Shown here: positions 2,464-25,945 of the stretch, in pieces
Layout of the letters: each line of letters begins with the position of its first letter
Numbering within the stretch: the stretch's first letter is position 1
Made by a program: the position numbers and the translations under genes
The notes under the pieces: model-generated
Told to the model about the DNA's origin: nothing
What the model saw: only the letters and a program-made list of their open reading frames with translations
Databases searched by the model: none
NCBI RefSeq assembly: GCF_058153355.1
Contig: NZ_CM177019.1
DNA: 64,000 nucleotides
Strand: one strand, 5' to 3'

Positions 2464-2960
2464 TTCGAGTAGAAATTCCCATTGATGCGCCGGGTATTGA
2501 TGCCCTGCTGCGTCGTTCATTCGAAAGCGATGCGGAAGCGAAGCTGGTTCACGATCTGCGTGAAGATGGCTTTCTGACGCTGGGGCTGGTGGCGACAGAT
2601 GACGAAGGTCAGGTCATTGGCTATGTGGCATTTAGTCCGGTTGATGTGCAGGGCGAAGACCTGCAATGGGTCGGCATGGCACCGCTGGCGGTAGATGAAA
2701 AATACCGTGGACAGGGGCTGGCACGCCAACTGGTCTATGAAGGACTCGATTCGCTTAATGAGTTCGGCTATGCCGCAGTGGTGACGCTGGGCGATCCGGC
2801 GCTGTACAGTCGTTTCGGCTTTGAACTGGCGGCGCATCACGATCTGCGTTGTCGTTGGCCGGGCACTGAAAGCGCCTTCCAGGTACATCGTTTAGCGGAT
2901 GATGCGCTGAACGGCGTAACCGGTCTGGTTGAGTATCACGAACACTTCAATCGCTTTTAA
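2457..2960 (+). CDS. yhbS: GNAT-family N-acetyltransferase YhbS
   Basis: 167 aa ORF overlapping the ubiT stop; acetyltransferase-like sequence. Confidence 0.85.
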
Positions 2961-3249
2961 TCTCCGGGGTTTGCAGGCTGCTCAACAGTTCTGCAAACCC
3001 TGCGCCTTCCGCTACCAGACGCTCTTTTTGCCGTTTGGTCAGTTGCTTGATGCGATATTCCATCCGTAACGCCAGCGAGCGGTCGCCCACTGGCGCGGAA
3101 AACGCCAGCGTCAGTTCTCCTTTCCCGCGCAGTGCTTTCGCCCCTTTTCCGCTTTGGTGCTGCTGATAGCGGCGTTCAACATCCGTAGTGATCCCGGTAT
3201 AAAGCTTATTGTCGGCGGTACGGATCAAGTAAAGAAACCAGGGTGTCAT
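2947..3249 (-). CDS. yhbQ: GIY-YIG domain protein YhbQ
   Basis: ORF 2947-3261; start at [19 protein letters not shown] (GIY-YIG motif), ~100 aa. Confidence 0.85.
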
Positions 3250-3298
3250 CGTCTGCGTCACATGTTAAGGTCAGCCCACAGTATAAAAGAGAACAGCT

Positions 3299-3721
3299 AT
3301 GGAAACACTCACCGCCATCAGCCGTTGGCTGGCAAAACAACATGTTGTCACCTGGTGTGTGCAGCAGGAAGGGGAATTGTGGTGCGCCAATGCCTTTTAT
3401 CTTTTTGATGCACAGAAAGTTGCCTTCTACATTTTGACGGAGGAAAAAACGCGTCACGCGCAGATGAGTGGGCCGCAGGCGGCAGTTGCTGGAACGGTAA
3501 ACGGTCAGCCGAAAACGGTAGCGTTAATTCGCGGCGTGCAGTTTAAAGGTGAGATCCGCAGACTGGAAGGTGAGGAAAGCGACCTCGCACGCAAGGCGTA
3601 TAATCGCCGCTTTCCGGTTGCCAGAATGCTGTCGGCGCCGGTGTGGGAAATCCGGCTCGATGAAATCAAATTCACCGACAACACGCTGGGCTTTGGTAAA
3701 AAAATGATTTGGTTACGTAAC

Positions 3722-3742
<21 letters not shown>
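3299..3742 (+). CDS. yhbP: UPF0306 protein YhbP
   Basis: 147 aa ORF at conserved position between yhbQ and yhbO. Confidence 0.8.
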
Positions 3743-4278
<536 letters not shown>

Positions 4279-4279
4279 T

Positions 4280-4330
<51 letters not shown>

Positions 4331-4357
4331 GGGAGCGCAAGGCAGACAATTCTGTAA

Positions 4358-5003
<646 letters not shown>

Positions 5004-5075
5004 TTATTCCCAAGAATTGATAGTGAGCGTAATATTCACGCGCTCAATTATCATGACTAATTCCTGGGGAATGCT

Positions 5076-6116
5076 ATGACTGGTCAGTCTTCATCTCAGG
5101 CGGCAACGCCCATTCAGTGGTGGAAACCCGCGCTTTTCTTTCTCGTTGTCATTGCCGGACTTTGGTATGTGAAATGGCAACCTTACTACGGTAAAGCCTT
5201 TACTGCCGCCGAAACTCACAGTATCGGTAAATCTATCCTTGCGCAGGCGGATGCTAATCCGTGGCAGGCGGCGTTGGATTACGCGATGGTCTATTTCCTC
5301 GCGGTTTGGAAAGCGGCGGTGCTGGGAGTGATCCTCGGGTCGTTGATTCAGGTGCTGATCCCGCGTGACTGGTTATTGCGTACGCTTGGGCAATCGCGCT
5401 TTCGCGGCACGCTGCTGGGAACGCTGTTTTCGCTGCCGGGCATGATGTGTACCTGCTGTGCGGCTCCGGTCGCGGCGGGAATGCGTCGCCAACAGGTGTC
5501 GATGGGCGGTGCGCTGGCATTCTGGATGGGGAATCCGTTGTTAAACCCGGCGACGCTGGTGTTTATGGGGTTTGTCCTCGGCTGGGGCTTTGCCGCGATT
5601 CGTCTGGTGGCGGGGCTGGTGATGGTGTTGCTGATTGCGACGCTGGTGCAAAAATGGGTGCGTGAAACACCGCAAACACAGGCACCGGTCGAAATTGACA
5701 TGCCGGAAGTGCAGGGCGGATTTTTTAGCCGCTGGGGCAGGGCGCTATGGACGCTTTTCTGGAGTACGATCCCGGTATATATCCTTGCCGTACTGGCGTT
5801 GGGTGCCGCTCGCGTCTGGTTATTCCCCCATGCCGATGGTGCTGTCGATGACAGCCTGATGTGGGTGATTGCGATGGCGGTAGCGGGATGCTTGTTTGTC
5901 ATTCCCACGGCAGCAGAAATTCCGATTGTACAAACGATGATGCTGGCAGGTATGGGAACCGCTCCGGCGCTGGCATTGTTGATGACGCTTCCTGCTGTAA
6001 GTTTGCCGTCGCTGATAATGTTGCGTAAAGCGTTCCCGGCGAAAGCCTTATGGCTGACGGGTGCGATGGTGGCGGTGTCTGGTGTGATTGTCGGCGGGCT
6101 GGCGCTGTTGTTCTGA
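5076..6116 (+). CDS. yraQ: Inner-membrane permease YraQ
   Basis: 346 aa hydrophobic multi-pass protein. Confidence 0.85.
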   Translation: MTGQSSSQAATPIQWWKPALFFLVVIAGLWYVKWQPYYGKAFTAAETHSIGKSILAQADANPWQAALDYAMVYFLAVWKAAVLGVILGSLIQVLIPRDWLLRTLGQSRFRGTLLGTLFSLPGMMCTCCAAPVAAGMRRQQVSMGGALAFWMGNPLLNPATLVFMGFVLGWGFAAIRLVAGLVMVLLIATLVQKWVRETPQTQAPVEIDMPEVQGGFFSRWGRALWTLFWSTIPVYILAVLALGAARVWLFPHADGAVDDSLMWVIAMAVAGCLFVIPTAAEIPIVQTMMLAGMGTAPALALLMTLPAVSLPSLIMLRKAFPAKALWLTGAMVAVSGVIVGGLALLF

Positions 6117-6130
6117 TTTGAGGGAAAACA

Positions 6131-6307
6131 TGTCGGATGCGGCGTAAACGCCTTATCCGACCTACGGTTTGCATCGTTGCAGGCCTGATAAGACGCGGCA
6201 AGCGTCGCATCAGGCAACGGCAGTCGGATGCGGCGCAGGCGCCTTATCTGACCTACGGTTTGTGTCGTGTAGGCCTGATAAGACGCGGCAAGCGTCGCAT
6301 CAGGCAT
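6131..6307. repeat. BIME/REP cluster (several inverted REP units)
   Basis: Repeated gcctgataagacgcg...cgtcgcatcaggc and cggatgcggcg...ccttatccg palindromic units. Confidence 0.85.
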
Positions 6308-6319
6308 TACAAGGTGCTG

Positions 6320-6895
6320 CTATTTAATAAACGTAAACGCTGTGGTTACACGTTTTACGCCGCTCACCCGACTGGCAATATCTGCCGCCGCTTTCGCTTC
6401 ACGTTCAGTCACCAGCCCCATCAGGAACACTTCACCGTTTTCGGTGGTCACTTTCACGTTGGACGATTTCACCAGGTCGCTGGTTAAGAGCTGCGAACGC
6501 ACTTTGGTGGTGATCCACGTATCGTTAGACGCTTCGCCCAGACCAATCGGCTGGCCCTGACGAATCTCGTTATACACTTCGTTGGCACCGTCTACGCCCA
6601 TCGCAATTTGTTTAGCGCGAGCCGAAAGTTCAGCGTTTGGTGACTGCCCAACCAGCAGCACTTTGCCCTGATAGGCCGTTACATTAATGCGAGCTTCTTT
6701 CTTGATTTGTTCGTCTTTCGACAATGCGCTGTTCACGCGCACTTCCAGGGTTCCATCGTCCACCTGGGTGCCGACACTGCGTGGGTCAGTTGCGGCTTTT
6801 GTACCCACAGCCGCGGTGCCCACTACGGCGGCAGCAACGCAACCTTGCAACAGCAGTGCGGAAATAAGGACTGCGATTGGCGATAATGCCTTCAT
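6320..6895 (-). CDS. dolP: BON-domain outer-membrane lipoprotein DolP (YraP)
   Basis: 191 aa with lipoprotein signal (LLQGC) and dual BON-like domains. Confidence 0.9.
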   Translation of the reverse strand: MKALSPIAVLISALLLQGCVAAAVVGTAAVGTKAATDPRSVGTQVDDGTLEVRVNSALSKDEQIKKEARINVTAYQGKVLLVGQSPNAELSARAKQIAMGVDGANEVYNEIRQGQPIGLGEASNDTWITTKVRSQLLTSDLVKSSNVKVTTENGEVFLMGLVTEREAKAAADIASRVSGVKRVTTAFTFIK

Positions 6896-6904
6896 GTATT
6901 CTCC

Positions 6905-7495
6905 TTAAACATCCTGGTGAGGGAAAAGCGTGTTATCGATCAGATCGCACAAGCAATTTACCGTCAGCATATGCATTTCCTGAATGCGAGCACTACGATG
7001 CGAAGGAATGCGGATCTCCACATCCTGTGGCCCTAACAACCCTGCAAGTTCGCCGCCGTCATAACCGGTCAATGCCACAATGGTCATATCACGCGTAACG
7101 GCGGCTTCAACTGCTTTAACAATATCGCGGCTGTTGCCACGGGTGGAAATGGCTAATAACACATCTCCCGCATGACCCAGCGCCCGCACTTGTTTTGCAT
7201 ACACTTCATCATGCAAACGATCGTTGGCAATCGCCGTTAAGACAACATTATCAGTATTTAGTGCAATGGCAGGTAAGCTGGGCCGCTCCGTTTCGAAACG
7301 GTTGATCATGCTGGCAGCAAAATGCTGTGCGTTGGCAGCAGAAGTTCCATTACCACAACAGAGGATTTTGTTGCCATTGAGCAGAGACTGAACCAGCGTC
7401 ATGGCTGCACGGGAGATGGCATCCGGAAGCGCCTCTGCTGCCGCAATTTGAGTTTGAATGCTTTCAGTGAAGCAAGCTTTAATTCGTTCTTGCAC
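6905..7495 (-). CDS. diaA: DnaA initiator-associating protein DiaA (SIS domain)
   Basis: 196 aa SIS-domain protein. Confidence 0.9.
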
Positions 7496-7514
7496 GCTAA
7501 TCCTTAAACCTTAA

Positions 7515-7910
7515 TTATGAGTGGTCATTAAAGGCATCCTTAATCCACTCAACTTCATTCCCGGTGAAGGCTACCACATCGAACCGGCAATCCACAGTAT
7601 CAAAACTCCCATTATGACGCGCGAGCCACAAGCGGGCAGTCTGTAATAATTTGTGTTGTTTGCTGCGGGTCACACTGGCTGCCGCACCACCGTAAAGGGC
7701 TGAGCGGCGGTAACGCACCTCGACAAAAACGGTGGTCCTGCCTTCACGCATTATCAGATCGATCTCGCCGCCACGCTCGTTCACGTTAGCGGCGACAAAC
7801 CGCAGTCCTTTGCTCTCCAGCCAGCGACGCGCTTGTGCTTCCCACGCATCGCCGGTCTGTTTAGTGGTTAACTGGCGGGGACTACCTGACCTTGTTGGTA
7901 CTGTAGCCAT
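7515..7910 (-). CDS. yraN: UPF0102 protein YraN
   Basis: 131 aa ORF; 3' end overlaps lpoA start by ~43 nt. Confidence 0.85.
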
Positions 7911-9904
7911 GATAACTTCCTGTTAATTACGCAATCCGGGTTAGCCGTCAGACTTCCGGTATTACCGTTGATTTCGAAACCCTGAACCTGGCGCATTTGT
8001 GAGAAATGATTTGCCAACGACCAGGCATCAACGCCCATCGCATACATGCGAGCCAGCGAATAATCGTTATTCACCGCACTGAGCGCCTGCTGCATTAATG
8101 GCAGATTACCGCCTGCCAGCATCGGGATTTCGCTATATTGCAAACCTTCCATTTCCAGACGGAAATCCGGACCCGCGGTGCCTTGTGCGCTTCGGGAGCT
8201 GGCGTACAGCGTTGCACCGCTCTGGCTACCGTTACGCATGGCGATCATCGGTTTGATAAAAGCGATTTCGCCCGGCGTTGCCACAATGTACACCGCATCG
8301 ACACGGCCGCCATTATTGGTGAACTGGTCATCGGTTGGCGTGGTTTGCAGCGTTGGATTGTTGGTCGTTATGCCTGAGTCGGTTGTCGCTCTGGGAGTAA
8401 TCGGGCTACCGGTTAAAGCGATACCAGAACCACCGTTAACACCCGCGCGTAATTCGCTGGTGGAACCAAATTTTTGTTGCAAAACGGTGCCGCCACCCAG
8501 TTTCTGCCACTCTTGCGCAAACGCATTGGCTACGCGATCGCCCAATGAACTGCGTGGGATCAGCACCAGCGGCGCTTGTTTACCCTGGTCACGAATATGA
8601 CGCGCTGCATCGCGCGCTTCGTCTTCCGGTGAAAGCGCGAAGTAACAAATATTGACGCGGTTTTCGATATTTTCTGGCTGGTTCAGTGCCAGCACGTTCA
8701 GCGGGGTGTTGCTTTTCAGTAACTCTTCAACGTTATTTTTCAGCAACGGACCGACCACAATACTCGCGCCATCCTGCTGAACCTGGTTGAGGATCTGGCT
8801 AAGCGGTTGTGATGAGGTATCATAAATTTTCAGCTCTGCGGATGGATTCGCGGGGGCGCTTACCGCCGCAGTGCTTGCCGCCGGGGCGCTTACAGGCACT
8901 GGTTGAGCCGCGGTTTCTTCGCCTGTCAGATCGCTAACCGAGGCTTGTGCCGGGCTGGCAACGCCATCCACGGTTTGCGGCTGAGGTTGTTCTGCTACGT
9001 CTGCGGCAGGTGCGGCAGCTACCTGAGCCGCCACTGGCTGAGTGCCGATATTTTTTGCCGCTTCAAAGCCTTGCTGAATAGTGCGACCAAATACCGCTGC
9101 CTGGCCATTCAGTGGCAACAGCAGGGCGATTTTGTTGGTCGATGCGGGTTTAAATGCTTTTACGTTTACCAACTGCGTAGGCAGCATTTTCGCGCCCGGG
9201 TTGTTCGGATAACGTTTCTGCCAGTCGGCGATCCCAGCTTTCATCATGTCGGGATCGTTACGGTTATCAAACCAGATGCGCTGCAGATCAAGCCAGCCTT
9301 GCAGAATATTTTCGTCGGCGTTGATCACCAGCGTATTCGCCTGGTCCTGAGTCATGGAGGAGAGTGCCTGCCATGTAGCATCAATATTCTGTTGCTTTTC
9401 TTTCGCGCCGAGCAGGGGTTCCTGAGCAATTAAGGCGCGCAGTAAATCAATGGAAGGACGCCCCTGGCTGGCATCGATTTTTGCCTGCCAGTAACGCGCT
9501 TGCTGGTTTTGTTCTAAATCTGCAGGTGTGATTTTCGCCAGCAAGTTTTGCGCGCCAGCAAAATCTTTCTGCGCCAGCTTAATTTCTACTGCCAGAAGAG
9601 TTTTCTCGCGACGCTGGTAATCGTTCAGTTCCTGCGGCAGTTGGTTAAACAGCTCCACCGCCTGCCCGGTTTTACCTTCTTTCACCAGTGTACGAATGGC
9701 GAGTAATTGCCAGTTGATCCTGGTATCATCAGCGCTTTGCTGCATCTGCTGAAGATAAAAGGCAGAATCAGCCTGCGCCGTGCCCTGCATATAAGCAGTG
9801 GACTGATCGGGAGTATGGGTGCCACAACCGGCGAAAATCAGGGCTGCCAGAACAACAGGCAGACAACGCGCGGCTTTCAAACGAGAAAATGTTGAGGGTA
9901 CCAT
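7868..9904 (-). CDS. lpoA: Outer-membrane lipoprotein LpoA, activator of PBP1A
   Basis: ORF 7868-9934; start at [10 protein letters not shown], lipobox LIFAGC, TPR-like N-terminus. Confidence 0.9.
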
Positions 9905-9968
9905 AATGTATCCAGTGATATTTTTTTTACGCAATGCTCAATATTAAATCGGCAATACGGACGACACA

Positions 9969-10832
9969 ATGAAACAACACCAATCGGCGGATAATTCTCA
10001 GGGCCAGCTTTACATTGTACCGACGCCAATCGGCAATCTGGCGGATATCACCCAGCGTGCGTTGGAGGTATTACAGGCCGTTGATCTGATTGCCGCCGAG
10101 GATACGCGTCACACCGGTTTATTGCTGCAACATTTTGGGATTAATGCTCGGTTGTTTGCGCTGCACGACCATAACGAACAACAAAAAGCCGAAACGCTGC
10201 TGGCGAAGCTGCAGGAAGGGCAAAACATTGCGCTGGTTTCCGATGCCGGAACGCCGCTAATTAACGATCCTGGCTACCATCTGGTGCGTACCTGCCGTGA
10301 AGCGGGCATTCGCGTGGTGCCGCTACCTGGACCGTGTGCTGCTATCACTGCTTTAAGCGCCGCGGGTTTACCATCCGATCGTTTTTGTTATGAAGGCTTT
10401 TTACCTGCCAAATCAAAAGGCCGTCGTGATGCGCTAAAAGCCATTGAAGCGGAGCCGCGTACGTTGATTTTTTATGAATCCACCCACCGTCTGTTAGATA
10501 GCCTGGAAGATATCGTTGCTGTGCTGGGTGAGTCCCGTTACGTGGTGCTGGCGCGTGAGCTCACCAAAACCTGGGAAACCATTCACGGCGCGCCCGTTGG
10601 CGAGCTGCTGGCGTGGGTCAAAGAAGATGAAAACCGTCGCAAAGGCGAAATGGTGCTGATTGTCGAAGGTCATAAAGCACAGGAAGAAGACTTACCCGCC
10701 GATGCCCTGCGCACGCTGGCGTTGTTACAGGCTGAGCTTCCGCTGAAGAAAGCGGCGGCGCTGGCGGCAGAGATTCACGGCGTGAAAAAAAACGCGCTGT
10801 ATAAGTATGCGCTGGAGCAGCAGGGGGAGTGA
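9969..10832 (+). CDS. rsmI: 16S rRNA 2'-O-methyltransferase RsmI
   Basis: 287 aa tetrapyrrole-methylase-fold protein. Confidence 0.9.
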
Positions 10833-10881
10833 TTACTGGCGTCGCAGCAAGAATAGAGCTGCAACGCCTACACCGGACGAT

Positions 10882-11649
10882 TTAACGACGACACATCTCA
10901 TCAATCATGCATGTGAAATAGTTATGCAGCCATAAAAACGAAGCCGGGATAGCGGTAGAGACTTTAGCCGTGAGAAAACGTTCTGTCGCATCCTGCTTTC
11001 CTTCGCCAGTTATCAGTAGCAAAACTTCGCGGGTATTGAGAATATCCTTCAGGCCTAAGGTGATCCCACGAGTCACGGGGCGACCCGCGGTTTTTAGCAT
11101 CTCATGTTGCTGTGTTCTGGCATCAAGTTGACTGATATGGCAGGCCGGTTGCAGGCTTTCTCCCGGTTCGTTCAGCCCAAGATGACCGTTTTTCCCCAAT
11201 CCGAGAACGCATAAATCCAGACCGCCTTTGCGCGCAATCAGGTTCGTTACCCGTTCGCACTCTGTCTCATTTATCTCTTCGGAGCGAAAGCTGATGAGCT
11301 GGTCTTCACGTAGCCCCAGCGGCTGCACGATATGCTGTTGAAGGAAAGTTTCGCAGGTGCCAGGCATCGTTAATGGCAGATCCACCCATTCGTCGAGCTT
11401 CACGAAGGTGAGCTGGCTGACATCAACCTGCTGCTGGTGGATTTTTTCTACCAGATAATGATACGTCAGTAATGGCGTGGCTCCGGTCGCCAGGCAAATC
11501 ACGGCATCCGGTTTGCTACGGATCACGGCCAATAAATATTCGCTGGCACGTTCACTTAACGCCGTATAGTTTTCAACTTGTTGAAGGGTTTGCACAGGAT
11601 GAAATTCCTTTAGTAAAGAGGCACCACCAGACGCAGTGCCTCGTTCCAT
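10882..11649 (-). CDS. agaI: Galactosamine-6-phosphate deaminase/isomerase AgaI (NagB family)
   Basis: 255 aa NagB-like ORF; ATG overlaps agaD stop. Confidence 0.85.
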   Translation of the reverse strand: MERGTASGGASLLKEFHPVQTLQQVENYTALSERASEYLLAVIRSKPDAVICLATGATPLLTYHYLVEKIHQQQVDVSQLTFVKLDEWVDLPLTMPGTCETFLQQHIVQPLGLREDQLISFRSEEINETECERVTNLIARKGGLDLCVLGLGKNGHLGLNEPGESLQPACHISQLDARTQQHEMLKTAGRPVTRGITLGLKDILNTREVLLLITGEGKQDATERFLTAKVSTAIPASFLWLHNYFTCMIDEMCRR

Positions 11650-12441
11650 TTACAAAATGCCGAATGCGGAACAAACAATAGAGAGCACAAAAGTCACGCC
11701 GATTAACAGCACCGGATGCGCTTTTTTCACCCGCAGGAAGTAATACATCAACAGGGTGTAGGCCATCGGTAAAATGTTCGGGAAGACTTTATCGAAGAAA
11801 TCCTGCTGCAGCGCGACGCTGTGGGTACTGTCGATGGCAAACGATGTCACCACGTTAATATGCACATACGAAGCGATCAGCCCGCCGATTACCGTGATCC
11901 CGAGGATGGTTGCCGAACGAGCAATCATCTGCGAGTTCTCTCGCACTTTATCGATCGCCTTCACGCCGACTGAATAACCGACGTGGGTCCAGCCGACGCG
12001 CAGGAAAAAGATAAGCAGGTAAACGGCGAAAAATAGAATCGGCCCCAGCAAGTTTCCCTGGCTGGCAAATGATGAGCAAATTCCCGCCATAATCGGCAAT
12101 AAGGTAAACCAGAAAATCGCATCGCCAATCCCGGCGATTGGGCCAAACAGTGCCACTTTGAGGCCTTTAATGGTGTCGCGGTTTTCTCCTTTTTCTTCCA
12201 TCGAAATTAATAACCCCATCAGGAATCCGACCAGATTCGGGTGGGTATTAATAAATTCGAGGTTATCTTTCATCGCCGCGCTTAGGCCCGGTTTATCGTC
12301 CTTATAAATCTTTTTCAGGATCGGCAACATCGCCCAGGTAAAACCGCCCGCCTGCATCCTTTCGTAGTTAAAGCTTGCTTGTAGCAGTGACGAACGAAAG
12401 CCCAGACGGGTGATATCTTTTTTACTGATTTCAGATCCCAT
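11650..12441 (-). CDS. agaD: PTS galactosamine EIID AgaD
   Basis: ORF 11650-12588; start at MGSEISKKDITRLGF, mannose-family IID. Confidence 0.88.
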   Translation of the reverse strand: MGSEISKKDITRLGFRSSLLQASFNYERMQAGGFTWAMLPILKKIYKDDKPGLSAAMKDNLEFINTHPNLVGFLMGLLISMEEKGENRDTIKGLKVALFGPIAGIGDAIFWFTLLPIMAGICSSFASQGNLLGPILFFAVYLLIFFLRVGWTHVGYSVGVKAIDKVRENSQMIARSATILGITVIGGLIASYVHINVVTSFAIDSTHSVALQQDFFDKVFPNILPMAYTLLMYYFLRVKKAHPVLLIGVTFVLSIVCSAFGIL

Positions 12442-13234
12442 TGCTGTAGTCCTCTTCTTCATTTTTACTGGCAACGGGCTGCGGTTGCGCTTGCTGCCGG
12501 GATTTCGCATTGAAAAACTCATACACCGCAAAGCCTGCGCCCAGTACGGCAACCGGCAACAGGTTGCTGACCTGGATGTAGCAAACAAACAGGAAACCGG
12601 CGATCAGGTAAGGGATATATTGCGCTTTGAACATTACGCGCAGCAGCAAGCCAAAACCAACGGCAGGCAGAATACCGCCAGCCACTTCAAAGCCGTGGGT
12701 CAGCCAGGCGGGCATCGCTTTCACCAGCGCCTGCATCGCCCCTTGCGCCAGGTAAGTACAGAGGAAAGCAATCACCGCATACGCTGAAGCGACGATGAGC
12801 ATCGTTGTCCAGTTAAGTCGGGAAAACGCTGCCGTATCCGCATCTTTCGCGCATTTATCGGCTTTGGTCATAAATAATGAGAAAGCGGAATAGAAGAACA
12901 GAATGACGTACTGCATTAACAAACTAAACGGCAGGCCAAGACCAATTGCCGTTTTGGCATCAACGCCCGTAGACCATGCAATGACGGTGGTCATCAGACC
13001 CGCCATAATCGGGTTGGGCGGCTGAACACCACCTGCAGGGGTTAATCCGGCGAAAGCCAACTCTGTTAGGCCACCGGTAATTAAGCCAGTCTGAATATCA
13101 CCGAGAATAGCACCTGTAAGGGTACAAACGATTATCGGGCGGAATAAAAATAAGGCTTCCAGCCAAAAATCAATCCCCAGAACGAAAACTAACGCCGCCA
13201 GGGATAATCCCTGAATTAGGGTTATTTCATGCAT
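12431..13234 (-). CDS. agaC: PTS galactosamine EIIC AgaC
   Basis: 267 aa mannose-family IIC; 11 nt overlap with agaD. Confidence 0.9.
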   Translation of the reverse strand: MHEITLIQGLSLAALVFVLGIDFWLEALFLFRPIIVCTLTGAILGDIQTGLITGGLTELAFAGLTPAGGVQPPNPIMAGLMTTVIAWSTGVDAKTAIGLGLPFSLLMQYVILFFYSAFSLFMTKADKCAKDADTAAFSRLNWTTMLIVASAYAVIAFLCTYLAQGAMQALVKAMPAWLTHGFEVAGGILPAVGFGLLLRVMFKAQYIPYLIAGFLFVCYIQVSNLLPVAVLGAGFAVYEFFNAKSRQQAQPQPVASKNEEEDYSNGI

Positions 13235-13273
13235 TTTTATTACCTCAAACCAGTATTAAGGCGATTTTTGAAT

Positions 13274-13750
13274 TTAGTCAGGGATTTGTTCTTTTTGATC
13301 GCCGGGGACGTCCTGAATAAAAATATTCACACCGCGTTGTTTAATAAAGCGTAAGTCCGTGAGATCCTGGTCATCGACATAAACTTTACTGCTGATTTGC
13401 TTTTTCCCTTCCGAGAAATGCATATTGCCGACGTTGACATCTTTCAGGTCAATACCACCTTCTACCAATTTACGTACCGTTTGTGGTGTGCGGCAAATCA
13501 GGAAGATCTTCTGATGCGGTGCAGCTTTGCCGATGACGTTAATGGTTTTTTCGATAGTAAAGAAACGAATGCCAAAGCCGTAGGTTTCCGCGGTAATACC
13601 CATTAATTTCTGTTGAATATCATCGTTAGCGACAACATCATCCACGACTACCAGCAGATTTGCACCGATGGTAGATGTCTAGGTCACACCAACCTGACCG
13701 TGAACCAGACGGTTATCAATACGGGTTAAGAGAATATTTGGACTGCTCAT
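13274..13750 (-). pseudogene. agaB: PTS galactosamine EIIB AgaB interrupted by in-frame TAG at codon 24
   Basis: From ATG at 13750: MSSPNILLTRIDNRLVHGQVGVT-TAG-TSTIGANLLVVVDDVVANDD...; stop codon at 13681-13679; downstream 123-codon frame is intact. Confidence 0.7.
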
Positions 13751-13916
13751 TGTGTAATCCTCACCATAAAGTTGAATAATATAATTTTTTTAAATATATT
13801 ATTGTTGCGATATTTTACTGATGTATTTATTAAGTTTTAGTTATCTCCTTTACCATTAAGGCACTCCCCGATATTAATCGGGAAGTACATTGGGATAAAT
13901 CATAAAAAACTAATGA

Positions 13917-14789
<873 letters not shown>

Positions 14790-15944
14790 TTATGCCTGCC
14801 ACGGATGAATGATTACGCCTTGCACCACGCGGTTAACGGTGCCGCTGGCTGATGGGGTATCCGGCGTATTGCCCATGTGCAGCGACTGCATCAGTGCAAA
14901 CGTCTGGGCGTACATCAGGAAGCAAAATGCCTGCTCAACGTCGATAAAGTGACGTGACGGCGGCAGGATGATATGTGGACCGGCGGTAATAACGTCGTTG
15001 CCTTCCGCGGCGATGGCGATTACGCTCATTGCCTGGTTGTCACGGCGGAGTTCTGCCAGCAGATCAAGATCATACTGACGCGTATAGGGGTGGCTGGAGA
15101 CAAACACCACCACCAGCGTTTCGTCATCGACCAGTGATTTAGGCCCATGACGGAATCCGGTCGGGGAATCATAAAAGGCCGCCAGTTTACCCGCCGTTAG
15201 TTCAAGCACTTTCAGCGCCGACTCGCGTGCTGCACCCTGTAATCCACCACTGCCGAGATAAACGATCCGTTTCCATGGTGCGTAACCAAACACACCTTCG
15301 CTGAAATCGCCCAGTGAGGTCAGGATTGCCTGGCAACGATCCGCTACGTCGCGGAAGGTCTGGCTATTGATTGTCTCAGGTGCGAAAACCGCGAGGCAGC
15401 TGGCCATCATAGTGGTAATGCTACTTGTCATCGCAAAGCCGCGATCGTGCGTTTCTGCGGGCATCAGCAGGGCAAACGCGTTGTCGCTGTTGATCGCGTT
15501 TTGGTAAAGAGCGCCCGCTTCGTTGCAGGTGATCGGCAGGTGATAGCATTCCGGTACAAACTGATTCGCCAGTTCCACGGCGGCGACGCTTTCCGGGCTG
15601 TTGCCAGATCGACCGAAGGAGATCAACAGCAGTGGATGCGCTGGATTCAGGTAGTCCATTGGATTGGTGACCAGATCGGTGGTCGGTACGGCGCTGACGT
15701 TTTTGCCGGTATGGCTGGCAAGCCACGGCGCGATGATGTCACCGATAAATGCCGAGGTTCCGGCTCCGGTCAGGATGATCCGCAGATTCTCTTTGCGCAG
15801 TAACGGTTCAAGGAAGTTATTGAGCGCTGTACGTAACGCGTCGATGTTGGTGAGTGAACGGATCCATGCGCGAGGCTGATGGCGGATCTCTTCTTCAGTC
15901 CATGTGCCGGTGGTGGCGGCCGCTGGGGTGTAATTTTCTGGCAT
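14790..15944 (-). CDS. agaS: SIS-domain sugar isomerase/deaminase AgaS
   Basis: 384 aa tandem-SIS protein. Confidence 0.9.
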   Translation of the reverse strand: MPENYTPAAATTGTWTEEEIRHQPRAWIRSLTNIDALRTALNNFLEPLLRKENLRIILTGAGTSAFIGDIIAPWLASHTGKNVSAVPTTDLVTNPMDYLNPAHPLLLISFGRSGNSPESVAAVELANQFVPECYHLPITCNEAGALYQNAINSDNAFALLMPAETHDRGFAMTSSITTMMASCLAVFAPETINSQTFRDVADRCQAILTSLGDFSEGVFGYAPWKRIVYLGSGGLQGAARESALKVLELTAGKLAAFYDSPTGFRHGPKSLVDDETLVVVFVSSHPYTRQYDLDLLAELRRDNQAMSVIAIAAEGNDVITAGPHIILPPSRHFIDVEQAFCFLMYAQTFALMQSLHMGNTPDTPSASGTVNRVVQGVIIHPWQA

Positions 15945-15989
15945 AACTCAATCCTTAGTCTGATGAACTTGACTTCCGGCATTGCAGGC

Positions 15990-16110
15990 TTTGCTTGCCT
16001 TTCGTTTCATTTCACTTGGTGATTCGTTTCGTTGATTAAAATCTATAGAAAAGAAATCGAAAGTTAAATGGGGAAAAAAGAAATAAAACGAAATTTGTGA
16101 TCGTTGAAAG
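15990..16110 (-). promoter_or_regulatory. agaS promoter region with AgaR operator-like TTTCGTTTCATTTC motifs
   Basis: tttcgtttcatttcac (16003-16018), ttcgtttcgttg, and complement of gaaataaaacgaaa match the recalled AgaR operator consensus. Confidence 0.5.
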
Positions 16111-16294
16111 AAAAGACAAGGGAAGATTAAAGGATTGCGTGATGACGTCGCTATGTGTACCGATTGCTGGAAGCGGCGTACCGTAGAGCGGATAAGACGC
16201 GCCAGCGTCGCATTCGACACCACTGCACAGATTAAAACGAAAGAAAAAGAAAGGCCTTACGGGGGAAGTGAAGGCCCAATAAAGGAGCAAACCA

Positions 16295-17428
16295 TCAAAA
16301 CGAAGCTAATTGACCCTGAATCCAGATTTGTTGCACATGCAGTCCGCTATCCAGCGCAACGACGCTGGCGCGTTTGCCCGGTTTAAGTGATCCCAAAACA
16401 CCATCAACACCCAGCATTCGCGCCGGATGCAGCGACGCCATATGGATGGCTTCCGCTGGCGTTACGCCCGTCAGCTCGACCATATTGCGAACAGCCGCAT
16501 CAACAGACAGCGTACTGCCCGCCAGTCCACCGGACGCGGTACGGACAACGCCGTCGTGCATCTGCACCTCTTCACCACATAACGTATATTGACCATCCGG
16601 CATCCCGGCTGCCTGCATCGCGTCGGTGATCAGCACGATTCTCTCTTTCGCACAGCAACAACACAGCGACATCGCCGCCGGATGTACATGATGCCCATCG
16701 GCTATCAATTCCAGCCAGGCGCGCTTGTCCGTTAAACCCGCGCCAACCATTCCCGGTTCGCGGTGATGTAATCCTGTCATCCCGTTATAGCAATGCACCA
16801 GGCCGTCGGCACCAACATCAAATGCGGCGCGGGTTTGTTGCCAGGTTGCTGCGCTATGTCCCAGCATTACCCGCACGTTCTGCTGTTTAAGATGACGAAT
16901 GGCTTGTAACGCGCCCGTTTTTTCCGGTGCCAGCGCCACCACGCGCAAGGTATGCCGTGAAACAGCAATCAATTGATCCAGCTCGGCAATTTCCAGCTCG
17001 CGAAACAGCTCCGGCGGATGTGCGCCTTTATTCTGCGGCGTGAAGTACGGTCCTTCGAGATAACTCCCCAGCACTTGCGCACCAGGTCCACCGCGCTGGC
17101 AGCGTAGAGCAATACGTTCCAGCGCCGCATGAATGGTATTAAGCGGCGCGGTTACGGTAGTCGGCAACCAACTGCCGACACCTTCCCGTGCCTTGTGCAT
17201 TGCCAGCTTGTCGAGCACATCCGGCGCGTCATCCATAACATCAACGCCCGCACCACCGTGTACATGGGTATCGATATAAGCGGGGCAGAGCAGTTCCGCA
17301 TCGCGTTCAGCCACGCCCACTGGAATCGGTTCGATTGCTGCAATTACACCGTCAGCAATATGCAACTGATGATCATCAAGCCAGCCCTCCTCAGTCAGCA
17401 GCCTTCTGGCGCGCAGAACGTGTGTCAT
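16295..17428 (-). CDS. agaA: N-acetylgalactosamine-6-phosphate deacetylase AgaA (full length)
   Basis: ORF 16295-17449; start at MTHVLRARRLL; NagA-like amidohydrolase. Confidence 0.85.
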   Translation of the reverse strand: MTHVLRARRLLTEEGWLDDHQLHIADGVIAAIEPIPVGVAERDAELLCPAYIDTHVHGGAGVDVMDDAPDVLDKLAMHKAREGVGSWLPTTVTAPLNTIHAALERIALRCQRGGPGAQVLGSYLEGPYFTPQNKGAHPPELFRELEIAELDQLIAVSRHTLRVVALAPEKTGALQAIRHLKQQNVRVMLGHSAATWQQTRAAFDVGADGLVHCYNGMTGLHHREPGMVGAGLTDKRAWLELIADGHHVHPAAMSLCCCCAKERIVLITDAMQAAGMPDGQYTLCGEEVQMHDGVVRTASGGLAGSTLSVDAAVRNMVELTGVTPAEAIHMASLHPARMLGVDGVLGSLKPGKRASVVALDSGLHVQQIWIQGQLASF

Positions 17429-17859
17429 ATTCCTTCCTCGACCGGACATTCTTCATGGCAGCGGCCTAACTCGTCCACCAGACTGGTCAGCCCACGGTGT
17501 CCACACTCCAGCGCCTGTACACGGAATTCTTCACCGCTTAACCCTTCGCGCTCCAGCACCATTTCCAGTAACAGTTGCAAATTGGTGCCGGTGATCACTT
17601 CATAGCCCGGTTTTTGCATCGCCAGCGTTGAAGCCACGCGAAACGGTGTGCCGCCCAGCAAATCTGTCAGAAAAACAATGCCGTCTTCACAATCCAGTTT
17701 GGCAATGGCTTCTTCAAGCTGCGATGTAAGCAGCGCAGTGCTTGAGGTTTCCGGAAAATCAATGGCGATAAACTGCGACTGCTCGCCGAGGATTTGCTTC
17801 ATTGCTTTTTCCATGCCGCTGGCAAATCCGCCATGCCCTGTCAAAATAATACTTAACAT
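17425..17859 (-). CDS. agaF: PTS N-acetylgalactosamine EIIA AgaF
   Basis: 144 aa mannose-family IIA. Confidence 0.85.
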   Translation of the reverse strand: MLSIILTGHGGFASGMEKAMKQILGEQSQFIAIDFPETSSTALLTSQLEEAIAKLDCEDGIVFLTDLLGGTPFRVASTLAMQKPGYEVITGTNLQLLLEMVLEREGLSGEEFRVQALECGHRGLTSLVDELGRCHEECPVEEGI

Positions 17860-17876
17860 CTAATACCTCATTGTAT

Positions 17877-18761
17877 TTAAAGGAAATGACAGAATTTACC
17901 GACGATGCCAAGAACCACGGTAACCGCAATCAGGCGCAGCGGGCTCCAGCCGCGGCGTACCAGCCAGAACATGGTCAGGGTGTAGACCAGCGGTAAGAAG
18001 GCAGGCATCAGTTTGTCGATAACATCAGCCTGTAACTTAACCACTGCGTCGCCAGCGGTGATTTCCAGCGTGGTGCTTAAACGAACATAGGTTGCCACCA
18101 GCGCGCCGATTACCGTCATCCCAACGATTGACGCAGCATGGCCGACTTTTTTGGTATTCGCTTTAATGAGTGGAATCGCCGCCACGCCCATGCGGTAAGC
18201 ATAATGCGCCAGACCAAAACGCAGCCCCAGGTGTACCACGTTGAACAGCACAATAAAGACGACTGCGCCAAGAATAGAGCCTTGCAATGCCAGACTGGCA
18301 CCAATCCCGCCACAAATCGGCAGTAACGTTAGCCAGAACATGGCATCGCCAATCCCGCCGAGCGGCGCACCGACGGCAATTTTGGTGCTCTGAATACTGT
18401 TAACGTCCTGCTTAGAACGCTCCATCGCGAGGATAATGCCAATAACAAACGTCACCAGAAATGGATGGGTATTGAAGAAACCCATATGTCCCTTCATGGC
18501 GGGCGCCAGGTCGCGTTTATTAGTGTGGATCTTTTTCAGAGCAGGCAGCAGACCGTACAACCAGCCGGAAGCCTGCATACGCTCGTAGTTAAAAGAAGCT
18601 TGTAACAGCATGGAACGCCAGGCGACGCGGTTGATATCTTTTTTTGTTAGCTCCGCGCCAATGTTCTGATCTTCGTATACGTTTTCATTGACGCCTGTCA
18701 GTAGTGTCTCTTCATTTTCGCTGACGTTCGGCAGGGTGGTTTGATTAGATGCCATCTTCAA
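17877..18761 (-). CDS. agaE: PTS N-acetylgalactosamine EIID AgaE
   Basis: 294 aa mannose-family IID. Confidence 0.85.
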   Translation of the reverse strand: MKMASNQTTLPNVSENEETLLTGVNENVYEDQNIGAELTKKDINRVAWRSMLLQASFNYERMQASGWLYGLLPALKKIHTNKRDLAPAMKGHMGFFNTHPFLVTFVIGIILAMERSKQDVNSIQSTKIAVGAPLGGIGDAMFWLTLLPICGGIGASLALQGSILGAVVFIVLFNVVHLGLRFGLAHYAYRMGVAAIPLIKANTKKVGHAASIVGMTVIGALVATYVRLSTTLEITAGDAVVKLQADVIDKLMPAFLPLVYTLTMFWLVRRGWSPLRLIAVTVVLGIVGKFCHFL

Positions 18762-19524
18762 ATTCCTCTTTCTGTGCCGCAGGTTGAGTCGGTTCAGGAG
18801 ATTTACGCAGCAGGTCGATCAGCGCCATCGCCAGCGCGGCGGCAGCAATAGCCAGCACCGGTAACTTGAGCCAGGCTGCGGCAACGAAGCCCAGGATGAA
18901 GTAGGGGATATAGACGTTTTTCATCATGATTTTCAGCAGCACGGCAAAACCGATTGCTGGCATGATGCCGCCCGCGACGCCAAGGCCGTCGATTAACCGT
19001 TGCGGCAGGACATCAATGATGGTTTTTGCATGCTCCGCGCCGAAGTAGATAGGCAGGAAAGCGCAGAGAAAATAGAACGTGCCGAGTGCCAGCAATGCCA
19101 GATAGTTCACGCGTTCAATGCCGCGAGTATCGGCGTTCTCCGCCATCCGGTCGCAGCGGGACATCACGCCAGACATCACCGAGAACAGGAAGGTAATCCC
19201 CATCTGTACTGCGACAGCGAAAGGTACGGCGACACCGACCGCGACATCCGGTTTCACGCCAGTAGTAATGGCAAACGCCGTGCCGACGATAGTTCCGATA
19301 ATCACGTTAGGCGGCTGTGCGCCCGCCAGCGGTGCCAGCCCCATCCACACCAGTTCCAGCGTACCGCCGGTTAAAATACCGGTATGCAGATCGCCAAGCA
19401 CCAACCCAACTAACGGGCCGAGGACCACCGGGCGGTGCATATGGGTCAAGCCGTTAAACATATCCAGGCCAGCGATAAAGGCGATAATGCCCAACGCAAA
19501 TGCCTGCAACAGACTGATTTCCAT
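18745..19524 (-). CDS. agaW: PTS N-acetylgalactosamine EIIC AgaW (full length)
   Basis: 259 aa mannose-family IIC, not truncated. Confidence 0.85.
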   Translation of the reverse strand: MEISLLQAFALGIIAFIAGLDMFNGLTHMHRPVVLGPLVGLVLGDLHTGILTGGTLELVWMGLAPLAGAQPPNVIIGTIVGTAFAITTGVKPDVAVGVAVPFAVAVQMGITFLFSVMSGVMSRCDRMAENADTRGIERVNYLALLALGTFYFLCAFLPIYFGAEHAKTIIDVLPQRLIDGLGVAGGIMPAIGFAVLLKIMMKNVYIPYFILGFVAAAWLKLPVLAIAAAALAMALIDLLRKSPEPTQPAAQKEEFEDGI

Positions 19525-19534
19525 AATGAATCCC

Positions 19535-20008
19535 TCAAAGTAATTTAAAGAGGTCCACAGCAGGTTCTGTCGGAACGCCCTGAACGAAGCATTCCACCCC
19601 AGCGGCTTTCAGGTCGTTAAATGCCGCGATATCGCTCGCATCCACAGAAACCGTTTTGGCAATTTGCTGCTTGCCATTGGCATAGTGCATGTTGCCAACG
19701 TTAATGCGACTCACCGGGACACCACCTTTAACCAGCGTCAGGAAATCGGCAGGTGTTTTACAAACCAGCAGGATTTTCTGCCGATCGGCGGCGCGGTGGA
19801 TGTTGTCGATCACTTTTTGCAGCGTCCAGAAACGTACGGCGATCCCTTCTGCCAGTACCATTTCCATCAGGTTTTGTTGTACCGGATCTTCGGCAACCTC
19901 ATCATTGGCTACCAGCACCAGATTTGCCCCCGCAAATCCGACCCACTGAACGCCGACCTGACCGTGAATCAAACGCTCATCAATCCGGCTTAAAACAATA
20001 TTTGGCAT
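19535..20008 (-). CDS. agaV: PTS N-acetylgalactosamine EIIB AgaV
   Basis: ORF 19535-20044; start at MPNIVLSRIDERLIHGQVGV. Confidence 0.85.
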   Translation of the reverse strand: MPNIVLSRIDERLIHGQVGVQWVGFAGANLVLVANDEVAEDPVQQNLMEMVLAEGIAVRFWTLQKVIDNIHRAADRQKILLVCKTPADFLTLVKGGVPVSRINVGNMHYANGKQQIAKTVSVDASDIAAFNDLKAAGVECFVQGVPTEPAVDLFKLL

Positions 20009-20030
20009 AGCGTGTTCCTCTTTGTTTTGC

Positions 20031-21311
20031 TTATTGGCCTTCACAGGCTGTGTGGTACTGCGCCAGGATGTCCTGAATATGGTTGATAATGAGTTCCCGT
20101 GGTGTTGGCTGCAGCTCGCCGGAGCGAACTTTCACGTACTGCAGCGGCAAATACTGGCTGATGAGCGGTAGCGGAATTGGTGCATCCGCCAGATTACGAA
20201 CCAGATGAGCGAAAGCGTCATCAATCTGGCTGTCCGGCCAGTAATAGCGCACGCGATCCGAGTAGCTATAACCACGCGCCAGACGACGCGCGTTGCCGTC
20301 ACCGTGGTAGTGGCTTTGCCAGTATTCCGGGCGGTCGAGCATCACGTTTTCCAGCACCTGACGCAGACCGGAACAGGCTTTCGCTGGCACCAGTTCTTCT
20401 TCAATCGCCGCCAGAGAGAACAGAGCTTCACGCAGGGCGAAGGTCAGCGCCGGACCAACTTTCAGAATGGCAAAGTGGTCAATCACCAGCTGGCGCAGCG
20501 ATTGCGGCGTTTGGTAATCGGTAGAGTGCGCTTCGAAAATCAGCGTTTCGTAGTTTTCGACCATCTGGCTTAAGGCGGTCGCTTTAGCTGGCTGATAATC
20601 AATAACGTTGGTGTGATCGAATTCGACGCCGGGTTGTACCACCAGAGCAATGATGCGTGGCCAGATGGCATTCAGACCTTGCTTTTCAAAGGCGTGACGA
20701 TGGGCTTCCAGCGTGGCGCGGGCGGCATCCGGCGTGGTGACCGCCAGCTCGCTTAAGGTTTCATGCGCGCCGCCAGGTACCGGCACTTCGGTACCAATGA
20801 CATAGACCAGATCGGCTTCGCCAAAGTGTTCACGACAGGTTTCTTCCGCGACTTTAGCCAGTCGGGCGGCGCGTTCAGCCACGATGTCATCGGTTAAGGG
20901 AACCGGATCGTCCTGACAGGACATGCTGCAATCAAGGTGAATTTTTTTGAATCCTGCCGCCACGTAGCTTTTAATCAAATCATCGGCATTGGCCATCGCC
21001 TGAGCTGCAGGCAGGTTTTGCCAGCGGTTTGGCCCCAGATGATCACCACCCAAAATCAACGCATCCTGTGGGAAATTCAATGAGTCGGCGAGCTGACAAA
21101 CAAAGCCGCGAAAATCGGCGGGTGTCATTCCGGTATAACCGCCGAACTGGTCCACCTGATTGGATGTCGCTTCAATCAGTAACGGTGTTTGGTTTGCACT
21201 GGCGTAGCGGATTGCAGCTTCCAGCACCAGCGGGTGTGCGGAACAAACGGCATAAATCCCATTTGTTTTGCCCTTTTTGTGCTGCCTCACCATTTCTGTC
21301 AGATGTTTCAC
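20031..21311 (-). CDS. kbaZ: Tagatose-bisphosphate aldolase subunit KbaZ
   Basis: ORF 20031-21377; probable GTG start giving [15 protein letters not shown]..., ~426 aa. Confidence 0.85.
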
Positions 21312-21559: not shown

Positions 21560-22369
21560 ATGAGTAATACCGACGCTTCAGGCGAGAAGCGAGTGACAGG
21601 CACCAGCGAGCGACGAGAACAAATCATTCAGCGCCTGCGACAGCAAGGGAGTGTGCAGGTTAACGATCTGTCGGCATTGTATGGCGTATCTACTGTGACG
21701 ATCCGCAACGATCTGGCGTTTCTGGAAAAGCAGGGGATCGCTGTGCGGGCCTATGGCGGCGCGTTGATCTGCGATAGCACGACGCCGTCAGTCGAGCCAT
21801 CAGTGGAAGATAAAAGCGCGCTGAACACTGCGATGAAATGCAGCGTTGCGAAAGCTGCCGTTGAGTTGATTCAGCCAGGTCATCGGGTGATCCTCGATTC
21901 CGGGACCACCACGTTTGAGATTGCTCGTCTGATGCGCAAGCACACTGACGTAATTGCGATGACCAATGGTATGAACGTAGCCAATGCACTGCTGGAAGCA
22001 GAAGGCGTTGAACTTCTTATGACCGGCGGGCATCTGCGGCGTCAGTCGCAATCTTTTTACGGCGATCAGGCTGAACAATCGCTGCAAAATTACCACTTCG
22101 ATATGCTGTTTCTTGGTGTAGATGCGATCGATCTGGAGCGCGGTGTCAGCACGCATAATGAAGATGAAGCCCGTTTAAACCGTCGGATGTGCGAAGTTGC
22201 GGAACGGATCATCGTGGTCACCGATTCCAGTAAGTTCAACCGTTCCAGTTTACATAAGATCATTGATACTCAACGTATCGACATGATCATTGTTGATGAA
22301 GGCATTCCTGCGGATAGTCTGGAAGGACTGCGAAAGGCTGGGGTTGAAGTGATTCTGGTCGGGGAGTGA
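21560..22369 (+). CDS. agaR: DeoR-family repressor AgaR
   Basis: 269 aa, N-terminal HTH plus DeoR C-terminal sugar-binding domain. Confidence 0.9.
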
Positions 22370-22901
22370 GAAATGGTGCCCGTAGCTCAACACGGATGTG
22401 TTCGGCGGGCATTGTTCACTGTCCTTTTACAGCCTGTTTTCTGCTCAAATTAGAAGCTTCAGCAAAGGTAATGCAAATGCATTATTAACAGCAGAAAGCG
22501 CCAGAACCAACGAAAAAAGAGAGCATGTTTCCCATTTTGCGAGGCGCTTTCCAAATCACCCGCTCAGTCCCCTCGCGTTGCAGTGCTAAAAGCACTATTT
22601 TGCAAATTTGTGACCTTCTTCACTCTCCCAAAAGGCGGTGATCTCACGGTGGGGATCCACTTTCTGCTTTCGCTTTTCTGCCGTTAGCACTCGCTATTTC
22701 GGCATCTCTTCTTTTCACTTTTTCAGTTTGTCATTTTCATTTGCGGTCAACCGAAAGTTCTGGAGTCGATTTTTCCAGGTTTCAACGCCGTTGTCGCGTT
22801 CACAAATTCACTTCTTTTCTTCTGATGTAATGCATTCAAAAGAAAATGAAAGCTGCAAAATGCAAGAATGCAACTAAATACTTTTTCAGGGAGCGATAAA
22901 C

Positions 22902-23672
22902 ATGCTAGATAGCCTAAGACGCCGCGAACAAATCATTGATTTGTTATGTGCCCAGGGAAGCGTACGCGTTGAGCCGCTCAGCATCCATTTTGGTGTCTCA
23001 TCGGTCACGATCCGCAATGACTTACGGTATCTGGAGCAAAAAGGTTGCGTCATGCGTTCCTATGGCGGTGCCGTGTTGAATCAACACTTTGCGCTCGACA
23101 GACCCTTGCAGGATAAAGATCGCCTTAATCGTGATGTTAAAGTGCGAATTGCCGAAAAAGCGGCCAGTTTTGTCAAAGATGGCGATACATTAATTATCGA
23201 TTCTGGTTCAACGACCACGCTAATTCCCGCTTCGCTCAAAGGGCGTCGGGATTTAGTCGTCATGACGAATGCCTTGAATATCGCCTGGGAAATGGCCAGT
23301 TTTGAACGGGTGGATGTTATGATCCTTGGTGGAAATGTTCGCCAGAGCGTCTACTCCCTGTATGGGCCTTCGGCAGAACAACAACTCCGGCAGTATCGCT
23401 TTGATAAGCTGTTTCTGGGCGTGGACGGCTTTTGCCTTGAAGCAGGGATTACCACGCCACATCCGGGTGAGGCACATCTGAACCAGGTGATGTGCCAGGT
23501 TGCGCAGGAAATTACTGTTGTCGCGGACTCCAGTAAATTTGGCCGCAAAAGCTTCTGTATGATCGGTGAAGTGAGCGAGATAGATCGACTGATTACCGAT
23601 AGCGGTATTCCGGAGAATTACAAAGCAGCATTAACGCAAATGGGTGTGGAAGTTGTGATTGCTGATGAGTGA
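22902..23672 (+). CDS. DeoR-family transcriptional regulator, AgaR paralogue (accessory)
   Basis: 256 aa; N-terminus RREQIIDLLCAQGSVRVEPLSIHFGVSSVTIRNDLRYLEQKG parallels AgaR; good RBS (GGGAG). Confidence 0.85.
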   Translation: MLDSLRRREQIIDLLCAQGSVRVEPLSIHFGVSSVTIRNDLRYLEQKGCVMRSYGGAVLNQHFALDRPLQDKDRLNRDVKVRIAEKAASFVKDGDTLIIDSGSTTTLIPASLKGRRDLVVMTNALNIAWEMASFERVDVMILGGNVRQSVYSLYGPSAEQQLRQYRFDKLFLGVDGFCLEAGITTPHPGEAHLNQVMCQVAQEITVVADSSKFGRKSFCMIGEVSEIDRLITDSGIPENYKAALTQMGVEVVIADE

Positions 23673-23676
23673 GAAA

Positions 23677-23708
23677 ATGTGGCTGGAGATAAACGTCGCC
23701 AGCCACAT
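23677..23708. terminator. Hairpin between convergent DeoR regulator and ROK kinase genes
   Basis: tgtggctgg...ccagccaca inverted repeat. Confidence 0.4.
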
Positions 23709-23716
23709 TACGTTAT

Positions 23717-24628: not shown

Positions 24629-24646
24629 CGCTCATCTCCTTTGGTT

Positions 24647-25903: not shown

Positions 25904-25945
25904 ATAAAGAAATACCTTTCTGATAAATTCATCTTAATTGCTACG

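Follow-up and report, generated by a model that had tools for sequence, protein, structure and literature searches.

The window, by which we mean the whole 64-kb stretch of Escherichia coli DNA that was analysed, carries agaB, the gene for the PTS galactosamine-specific IIB protein, as a nonsense pseudogene: it has a premature in-frame amber codon in place of Trp24 that is absent from its full-length orthologues. We regard this W24* allele as a true null that has cost the lineage its IIB-Gam component, that was probably produced at a Dcm methylation hotspot, and that has been tolerated in a dispensable pathway under weak selection. The probability of this reading is estimated at about 85%.

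The full agaB frame of 158 codons occupies positions 13274–13750 on the minus strand. It starts with an ATG at 13750, reads MSSPNILLTRIDNRLVHGQVGVT, encounters TAG at 13681–13679 (codon 24), and then runs on through ...TSTIGANLLVVVDD... up to the normal stop at 13276–13274. Alignment with the agaB genes of K-12 MG1655, MFDS1022581 and R32_14_1F, all three of which have TGG at codon 24, showed that the lesion consists of one G>A substitution at nucleotide 71 of the gene (window position 13680). The original prediction had placed the stop at codon 24, had derived it from TGG by a single G-to-A change, and had named tryptophan as the K-12 residue at this position. Re-reading of the window showed its coordinates and translation to be correct, and the alignment confirmed both the single change and the K-12 residue.

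AgaB is a member of the mannose/sorbose family of IIB proteins (PF03830/NF007288). With codon 24 repaired, it scores 281.3 bits against NCBIfam NF007288 (cutoff 180) and is almost identical to the solved AgaB structure, PDB 3EYE, over residues 1–158 (E=3.3e-102), while the window gene shares 98.5% nucleotide identity with the annotated agaB of MFDS1022581. The genomic context is also that expected of the family, with an agaS-kbaY-agaB-agaC-agaD-agaI operon beside agaZVWEFA and agaR, collinear with MFDS1022581, R32_14_1F, and K-12.

The mutated base falls within a former Dcm site. The ancestral coding strand of agaB reads GTG ACC TGG ACA, in which CCTGG conforms to the Dcm recognition sequence CCWGG, and the references carry ACCTGGA on this strand. 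Viewed on the plus strand, the ancestral CCAGG at 13679–13683 has become CTAGG through replacement of the inner C (13680) by T, as expected of deamination at a Dcm-methylated base. Within CCWGG, it is the second C that Dcm methylates, and the T:G mismatch that results from deamination is repaired by Vsr (PMC4924334). Deamination of 5-methylcytosine underlies the classical amber hotspots of lacI (Coulondre et al., 1978; reviewed in PMC12606429). In agaB, G71 would pair with the inner, methylated C of the opposite strand, and deamination of this 5-methylcytosine to thymine, when missed by Vsr, would yield a coding-strand G>A change and hence TGG>TAG. Dcm is widespread in E. coli. Its activity in the lineage of the window is assumed here, with dcm and vsr lying outside the window.

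Forty-two one-step nonsense changes, 13 of which are transitions, are possible in agaB. Only two of these fall on Dcm deamination positions, namely G71A (W24*) and C382T (Q128*), and Q128* was therefore predicted to be recurrent as well. The second site, a CCAGG at gene nucleotides 381–385 (13366–13370, minus strand), overlaps the CAG codon of Gln128; it is intact in the window and has become TAG in many other E. coli. AgaB products ending at residue 127 were found on three protein backgrounds, represented by 186, 140, and 49 contigs, respectively. When Q128* loci were inspected at the DNA level, 12 out of 12 displayed CAG>TAG within GACCAGGAT, and they comprised seven distinct gene haplotypes.

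Nonsense products at five glutamine codons outside Dcm sites, counted on two backgrounds, served as a control for the hotspot. They were found for Q138* (148 and 38 contigs), Q80* (47 and 6), Q90* (38 and 0), and Q118* (26 and 8), with none for Q146* (0 and 0). Contig counts of this kind are confounded by clonal expansion, and the non-Dcm nonsense products also reach tens to ~190 contigs. Haplotypes were compared in 24 contigs per allele, a small sample that is not tree-based. Q138*, the largest of the non-Dcm controls, displayed one DNA haplotype, in two places, among the 24 contigs of its larger group. In this sample, G71A was present on two haplotypes, C382T on at least seven, and Q138* on one. 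That the most independent origins are seen at the Dcm positions fits a mutational hotspot, as supportive rather than conclusive evidence, and it is most likely that W24* in the window arose at such a hotspot.

Many kinds of agaB null circulate in E. coli. On a common agaB haplotype, which includes that of strain 2013C-3181 (see below), other early lesions were found: a TGG>TGA change at the same codon 24, Q19*, and 1-base frameshifts at nucleotides 46 and 61. Q19*, the TGA form of W24*, Q128*, Q138*, and the frameshifts were verified at the DNA level, and Q80*, Q90*, and Q118* were deduced from truncated products only. Further disruptions were observed in individual genomes. In CP027672.1, kbaY is split into parts of 141 and 142 aa and agaB is frameshifted. 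In GCA_033723935.1, agaB Q128* is accompanied by a shifted 3′-end (an apparent indel after nucleotide 446) and by an agaC called, as in O157, at 256 aa. In GCA_000951935.1, the neighbour of agaB Q128*, kbaY, is interrupted by an IS transposase. Alongside K-12 and O157:H7, the several agaB alleles add to the impression that E. coli can dispense with the Gam branch of the aga regulon and often loses it.

Within the window, the 13 genes of the aga/kba cluster show no lesion other than the agaB amber codon. To survey the intactness of genes, three reference genomes supplied 65 complete annotated CDS that were transferred to the window, and agaV was checked separately against K-12. Uninterrupted genes accounted for 63 of the 66 compared, the exceptions being agaB, a chbC-like IIC gene, and cyuP. 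The cluster consists of the repressor gene agaR on the plus strand (21560–22369), followed on the minus strand by kbaZ-agaV-agaW-agaE-agaF-agaA (16295–21311), which encodes the GalNAc PTS, the shared IIA and the deacetylase, and by agaS-kbaY-agaB-agaC-agaD-agaI. In the latter, agaS and kbaY (13917–15944) are the upstream genes of agaB's operon (PMC3668189), while agaC (IIC-Gam; 12431–13234), agaD (IID-Gam; 11650–12441), and agaI (10882–11649) lie downstream of it. All 12 genes other than agaB are full-length and differ from the references by 0–5 amino acids. The agaC gene, which is located 3′ of the stop and is possibly under polarity, has no internal stops and two amino acid differences, and is preceded by its own GAGG Shine-Dalgarno sequence. 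The claims that the remainder of agaB and the whole cluster are intact, and that agaVWEF is untouched, are thus upheld. Stop aside, six positions separate agaB itself from its nearest relative among complete genomes; five of the differences are synonymous, and the sixth, I96V, agrees with K-12. So few other changes, together with agaC, agaD, and agaI being without lesions, fit a pseudogene that is young as judged by sequence comparison.

The original prediction further described the lesion as a recent point inactivation and not gene decay. This is borne out in part, by the single base change and the intact cluster, but two further transporter genes are frameshifted within the same 64 kb. The word recent is not sustained: the allele is common to every dataset of the lineage that was inspected at the DNA level, and the nearest complete genome with TGG is ~1.5% divergent. 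Decay of the Shigella type, driven by insertion sequences, is ruled out by the lack of any IS element in the 64-kb window and by the 63 of 66 genes that are intact.

The first of the two frameshifted genes, a chbC-like PTS IIC gene (28146–29506, minus strand), has a T7>T6 contraction at ~29324–29329 relative to R32_14_1F, corresponding to gene nucleotide ~178 (codon ~61). The 39,650-nt contig of SRR28786219 with the agaB TAG has a call for its 360-aa restart product as well, and the frameshift is therefore considered real. The second, cyuP (yhaO; 48820–50152, plus strand), encodes a cysteine/serine transporter and contains an additional A at 49645, which converts CTTT-TTC into CTTTATTC and results in two ORFs of 287 and 177 aa. 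The identical cyuP frameshift is found in GCA_015332025.1, where no gene has been called, and in SRR31441161, where the 287-aa ORF is called; relatives that are ~98.9% identical have an intact cyuP.

The fixation of W24* would most simply be explained by mutation pressure combined with weak selection on a dispensable pathway. It could be argued that loss of agaB has instead been positively selected, in view of the many independent agaB nulls, the Gam branch being broken in K-12 and O157:H7 too (PMC3668189), and the fact that all three disrupted genes in the window encode transporter components. We consider adaptive loss unlikely, however. In a genome collection as large as that of E. coli, any dispensable gene should turn up with rare nulls, W24* on the common haplotype occurs in only one or two of 5,426 complete genomes, and recurrence is highest for the alleles at the two Dcm positions, a sign of mutation bias. 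A bolder version, which we regard as decidedly improbable, is that agaB is repeatedly lost adaptively, with the in-frame Dcm sites at W24 and Q128 acting as built-in, high-rate ‘off’ positions, and that lineages shedding AgaB along with further transporters, as with the chbC-like IIC and CyuP in the window, are specialising in a niche in which taking up galactosamine brings no benefit or does harm.

Under the preferred reading of a null allele at a mutational hotspot, the consequences for the protein follow from the position of the stop. Codon 17 (CAC, 13700–13702, minus strand) encodes the histidine of a conserved RLVHGQV motif, for which AgaV and the PDB homologues 8YRI and 3P3V have an aligned counterpart. 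We take this histidine to be the phospho-acceptor of mannose-family IIB proteins, as in the structures of IIB-Man, IIB-Lev, and IIB-Sor. The stub of 23 residues that remains upstream of the amber codon contains His17 and none of the fold. AgaB in the window therefore falls short of a functional IIB: the stop parts His17 from residues 25–158, that is, from the rest of the domain, no uninterrupted polypeptide is encoded, and IIB-Gam is expected to be lost.

The IIA component, AgaF, is shared between the two systems (PMC12118421). Without IIB-Gam, phosphate would not be transferred from AgaF to galactosamine bound by AgaC/AgaD, while GalNAc utilisation would persist via AgaVWEF, AgaF, AgaA, AgaS, and KbaYZ. 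By analogy with O157:H7, in which an agaC amber was shown experimentally to confer a Gam− phenotype with Aga+ retained (PMC3668189), a Gam-negative, GalNAc-positive phenotype is predicted for the lineage. The phenotype might be leaky, as AgaV, which shares 48% identity with AgaB, could partly stand in as the IIB. In addition, the ~445 nt of untranslated mRNA may lower the expression of agaCDI through Rho-dependent polarity. The stop is followed by a modest C-rich, G-poor stretch, and the aga operon is one in which polarity has been described (PMC3668189). An effect on agaCDI is thus plausible, if predicted from sequence.

Gene callers place a restart ORF of 123 aa at a GTG codon (13645) in the same frame (13274–13645, minus strand). 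It covers only positions 34–153 of the 153 positions of NF007288, without His17, and still scores 203.7 bits, which is above the cutoff. The original prediction had named, as grounds for doubting the inactivation, reference alleles that also carry TAG here with a downstream start in use. This is borne out on the surface only: the 123-aa product is annotated elsewhere (e.g., EFW76629.1), but it lacks His17 and nothing indicates its use.

That agaB still works, whether by amber suppression or read-through or by the restart product acting with the 23-residue peptide or with AgaV, is accordingly very improbable. Some GenBank records, like the gene callers, do label the 123-aa product a PTS IIB, its profile score and the 48% identity between AgaV and AgaB lend this some credence, and suppressors have been considered for the agaI amber of O157 (PMC3668189). 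Against this, the restart ORF begins only at profile position 34 and so excludes the phospho-acceptor motif, no strong Shine-Dalgarno sequence precedes its GTG, the identical allele is treated as a pseudogene by PGAP, and the agaC amber of O157 does yield a Gam− phenotype (PMC3668189). The 64-kb window contains no tRNA genes, which excludes an amber suppressor encoded within it. Natural isolates rarely carry amber suppressors, and this too weighs against read-through of the agaB TAG. Programmed recoding or pyrrolysine insertion at the TAG was dismissed, as E. coli is not known to possess such a system.

RefSeq already contains an annotation of the exact W24* allele, for a different strain. A 65-mer of the common TAG haplotype, searched against complete E. 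coli genomes, retrieved 2013C-3181 (NZ_CP027312.1), whose agaB (MJ73_RS22090) is recorded by PGAP as a pseudogene with an ‘internal stop’; the idea that the allele is unique to the lineage of the window was thereby rejected. The corresponding 65-mer of the window haplotype had no exact match around the TAG in complete E. coli genomes. This query carries the SNPs at nucleotides 63 and 78, so that megablast finds no 28-nt word in other haplotypes. Strain 2013C-3181 and the window have in common the TGG>TAG change in codon 24, an aga cluster whose other genes are intact, and the order kbaY-agaB-agaC-agaD-agaI. It differs from the window in its agaB haplotype and background (~96% identity), and in having yraHIJK beside agaI and prlF-yhaV beside agaR. 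A keyword search of the literature on an agaB pseudogene returned irrelevant word-start matches only.

A second variant of the 123-aa product (e.g., EFW76629.1) belongs to the same protein cluster and is found on 65 contigs. Six of its seven inspected loci have G71A (TGG>TAG) on a different agaB haplotype, which departs from that of the window at nucleotides 63, 78, 90, 162, 261, 264, 297, 313, and 391, and at further sites. The differences nearest to G71A are located 8 nt upstream (nucleotide 63) and 7 nt downstream (nucleotide 78). Because these flanking SNPs differ, the two W24* alleles are taken to be independent, and two separate mutations are the parsimonious reading of the sequences, with the number of demonstrated origins standing at two only. 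A single origin with spread by recombination between the window lineage and the group of 2013C-3181 could potentially be suggested by the identical base change, by the propensity of E. coli to recombine, and by the mosaic identity levels of the aga region. With the haplotypes differing at nucleotides 63 and 78 and at ~13 further sites in the gene, however, the imported tract would need to be shorter than 15 bp, which makes this highly improbable.

The base change was also recovered in an independent dataset of the same lineage. Contig 179 of the Logan assembly of SRR28786219 carries the agaB TAG and matches the window with one mismatch in 12,372 nt and two in 13,155 nt, and the exact 123-aa downstream ORF is recorded on two to three Logan contigs. 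A sequencing or assembly error in a gene that is really intact, which might be suspected from a single base in one window and from two 1-bp indels nearby as a possible sign of a noisy assembly, is effectively excluded, because the same TAG is present in the SRR28786219 assembly, which departs from the window at other positions; moreover, the ORF recurs on those two to three contigs, both indels are reproduced (the chbC-like one in SRR28786219, that of cyuP in GCA_015332025.1 and SRR31441161), and a substitution is atypical of homopolymer errors.

The window comes from an E. coli lineage that is rare and divergent and of which only a handful of isolates have been sequenced. From ubiV through the CS1-type fimbrial operon, its gene order is collinear with that of annotated E. 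coli chromosomes. The best identities found among 5,426 complete E. coli genomes were 98.4% for positions 1–20000, 99.3% for 20001–42000, and 98.7% for 42001–64000, and K-12 and most other E. coli strains are ~96% identical. The best-matching strain varies by segment (MFDS1022581, R32_14_1F, or 2017-02-2CC), and this change along the window suggests a mosaic history. The closest relative identified was GCA_015332025.1, with one mismatch in 9.3 kb, and the exact AgaS of the window is known from only five contigs. A string of the window haplotype spanning the TAG had no exact match in 100,044 species-representative genomes or in JGI metagenomes, which shows only that the lineage is rare. The lesions are present in all datasets of the lineage that could be inspected at the DNA level.

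We observed several other features of this region. At 10833–10882, agaI adjoins rsmI, and the yraHIJK fimbrial operon, which K-12 and 2013C-3181 have there, is missing; MFDS1022581 and one metagenome contig likewise lack it. A seven-gene island is located between agaR and garD (~22900–29900), where K-12 and 2013C-3181 have prlF-yhaV. Its genes encode a second AgaR-like repressor, a ROK protein, a Gfo/Idh/MocA oxidoreductase, ChbG, a 6-phospho-beta-glucosidase, the chbC-like IIC, and a IIB, and their homologues carry names from cryptic ‘Escherichia sp.’ strains. Segment 20001–42000, which includes the island, is covered to at least 80% by only three of the 5,426 complete E. coli genomes. A fimbrial chaperone gene (60884–61527) upstream of the CS1-type major subunit shares 81.7% identity, with gaps, with that of 2017-02-2CC; since the flanking genes are ~99% identical, sequence comparison identifies it as a divergent or replaced allele. 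In the syntenic reference, rnpB (RNase P RNA) is found just 3′ of garK, and the equivalent position in the window is ~36590–36965.

In practical terms, agaB in the lineage of the window should be annotated as a pseudogene, and database entries of 123-aa ‘PTS IIB’ proteins from such alleles are artefacts of annotation. The predicted Gam-negative, GalNAc-positive phenotype could serve as a metabolic marker. Both of the amber-capable Dcm sites of agaB have been hit repeatedly in natural E. coli, and they provide a population-level illustration of the 5-methylcytosine hotspot known from lacI. The current understanding of the galactosamine pathway is unchanged, and the practical value of the finding is small.

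Three known systems invite comparison. The Dcm amber hotspots of lacI are alike in that G:C>A:T changes at the inner C of CCWGG generate amber codons and recur independently. They differ from agaB W24* in strand, the methylated C of the latter being on the template strand of a TGG codon and not within a CAG codon. They also represent a laboratory mutation spectrum, whereas the evidence from agaB comes from natural populations, with Dcm activity assumed. The aga cluster of K-12 is likewise an example of natural loss of amino-sugar utilisation in the same cluster (PMC3668189; PMC9628945). Its lesion is unlike that of the window in being a 2.3-kb agaW'-agaA' deletion, by which agaE and agaF are gone and agaW and agaA truncated, resulting in an Aga− Gam− strain; agaBCD of K-12 is termed ‘cryptic’, and its agaB is intact, with TGG.

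The closest parallel in kind is O157:H7, with its agaC Q8* and agaI Q72* mutations (Mukherjee et al., 2008; Hu et al., 2013, PMC3668189), a pattern that we confirmed in an O157:H7 sequence. As in the window, these are single-base ambers in an aga cluster that is otherwise complete, and a component of the galactosamine PTS is inactivated. Unlike in the window, it is the IIC and not the IIB that is hit, the changes are CAG>TAG outside Dcm sites, and the ambers are fixed in a major pathogen lineage with the phenotype shown experimentally. Published work already describes Gam-PTS components of E. coli inactivated by amber mutations, and agaB W24* is an ordinary further case.
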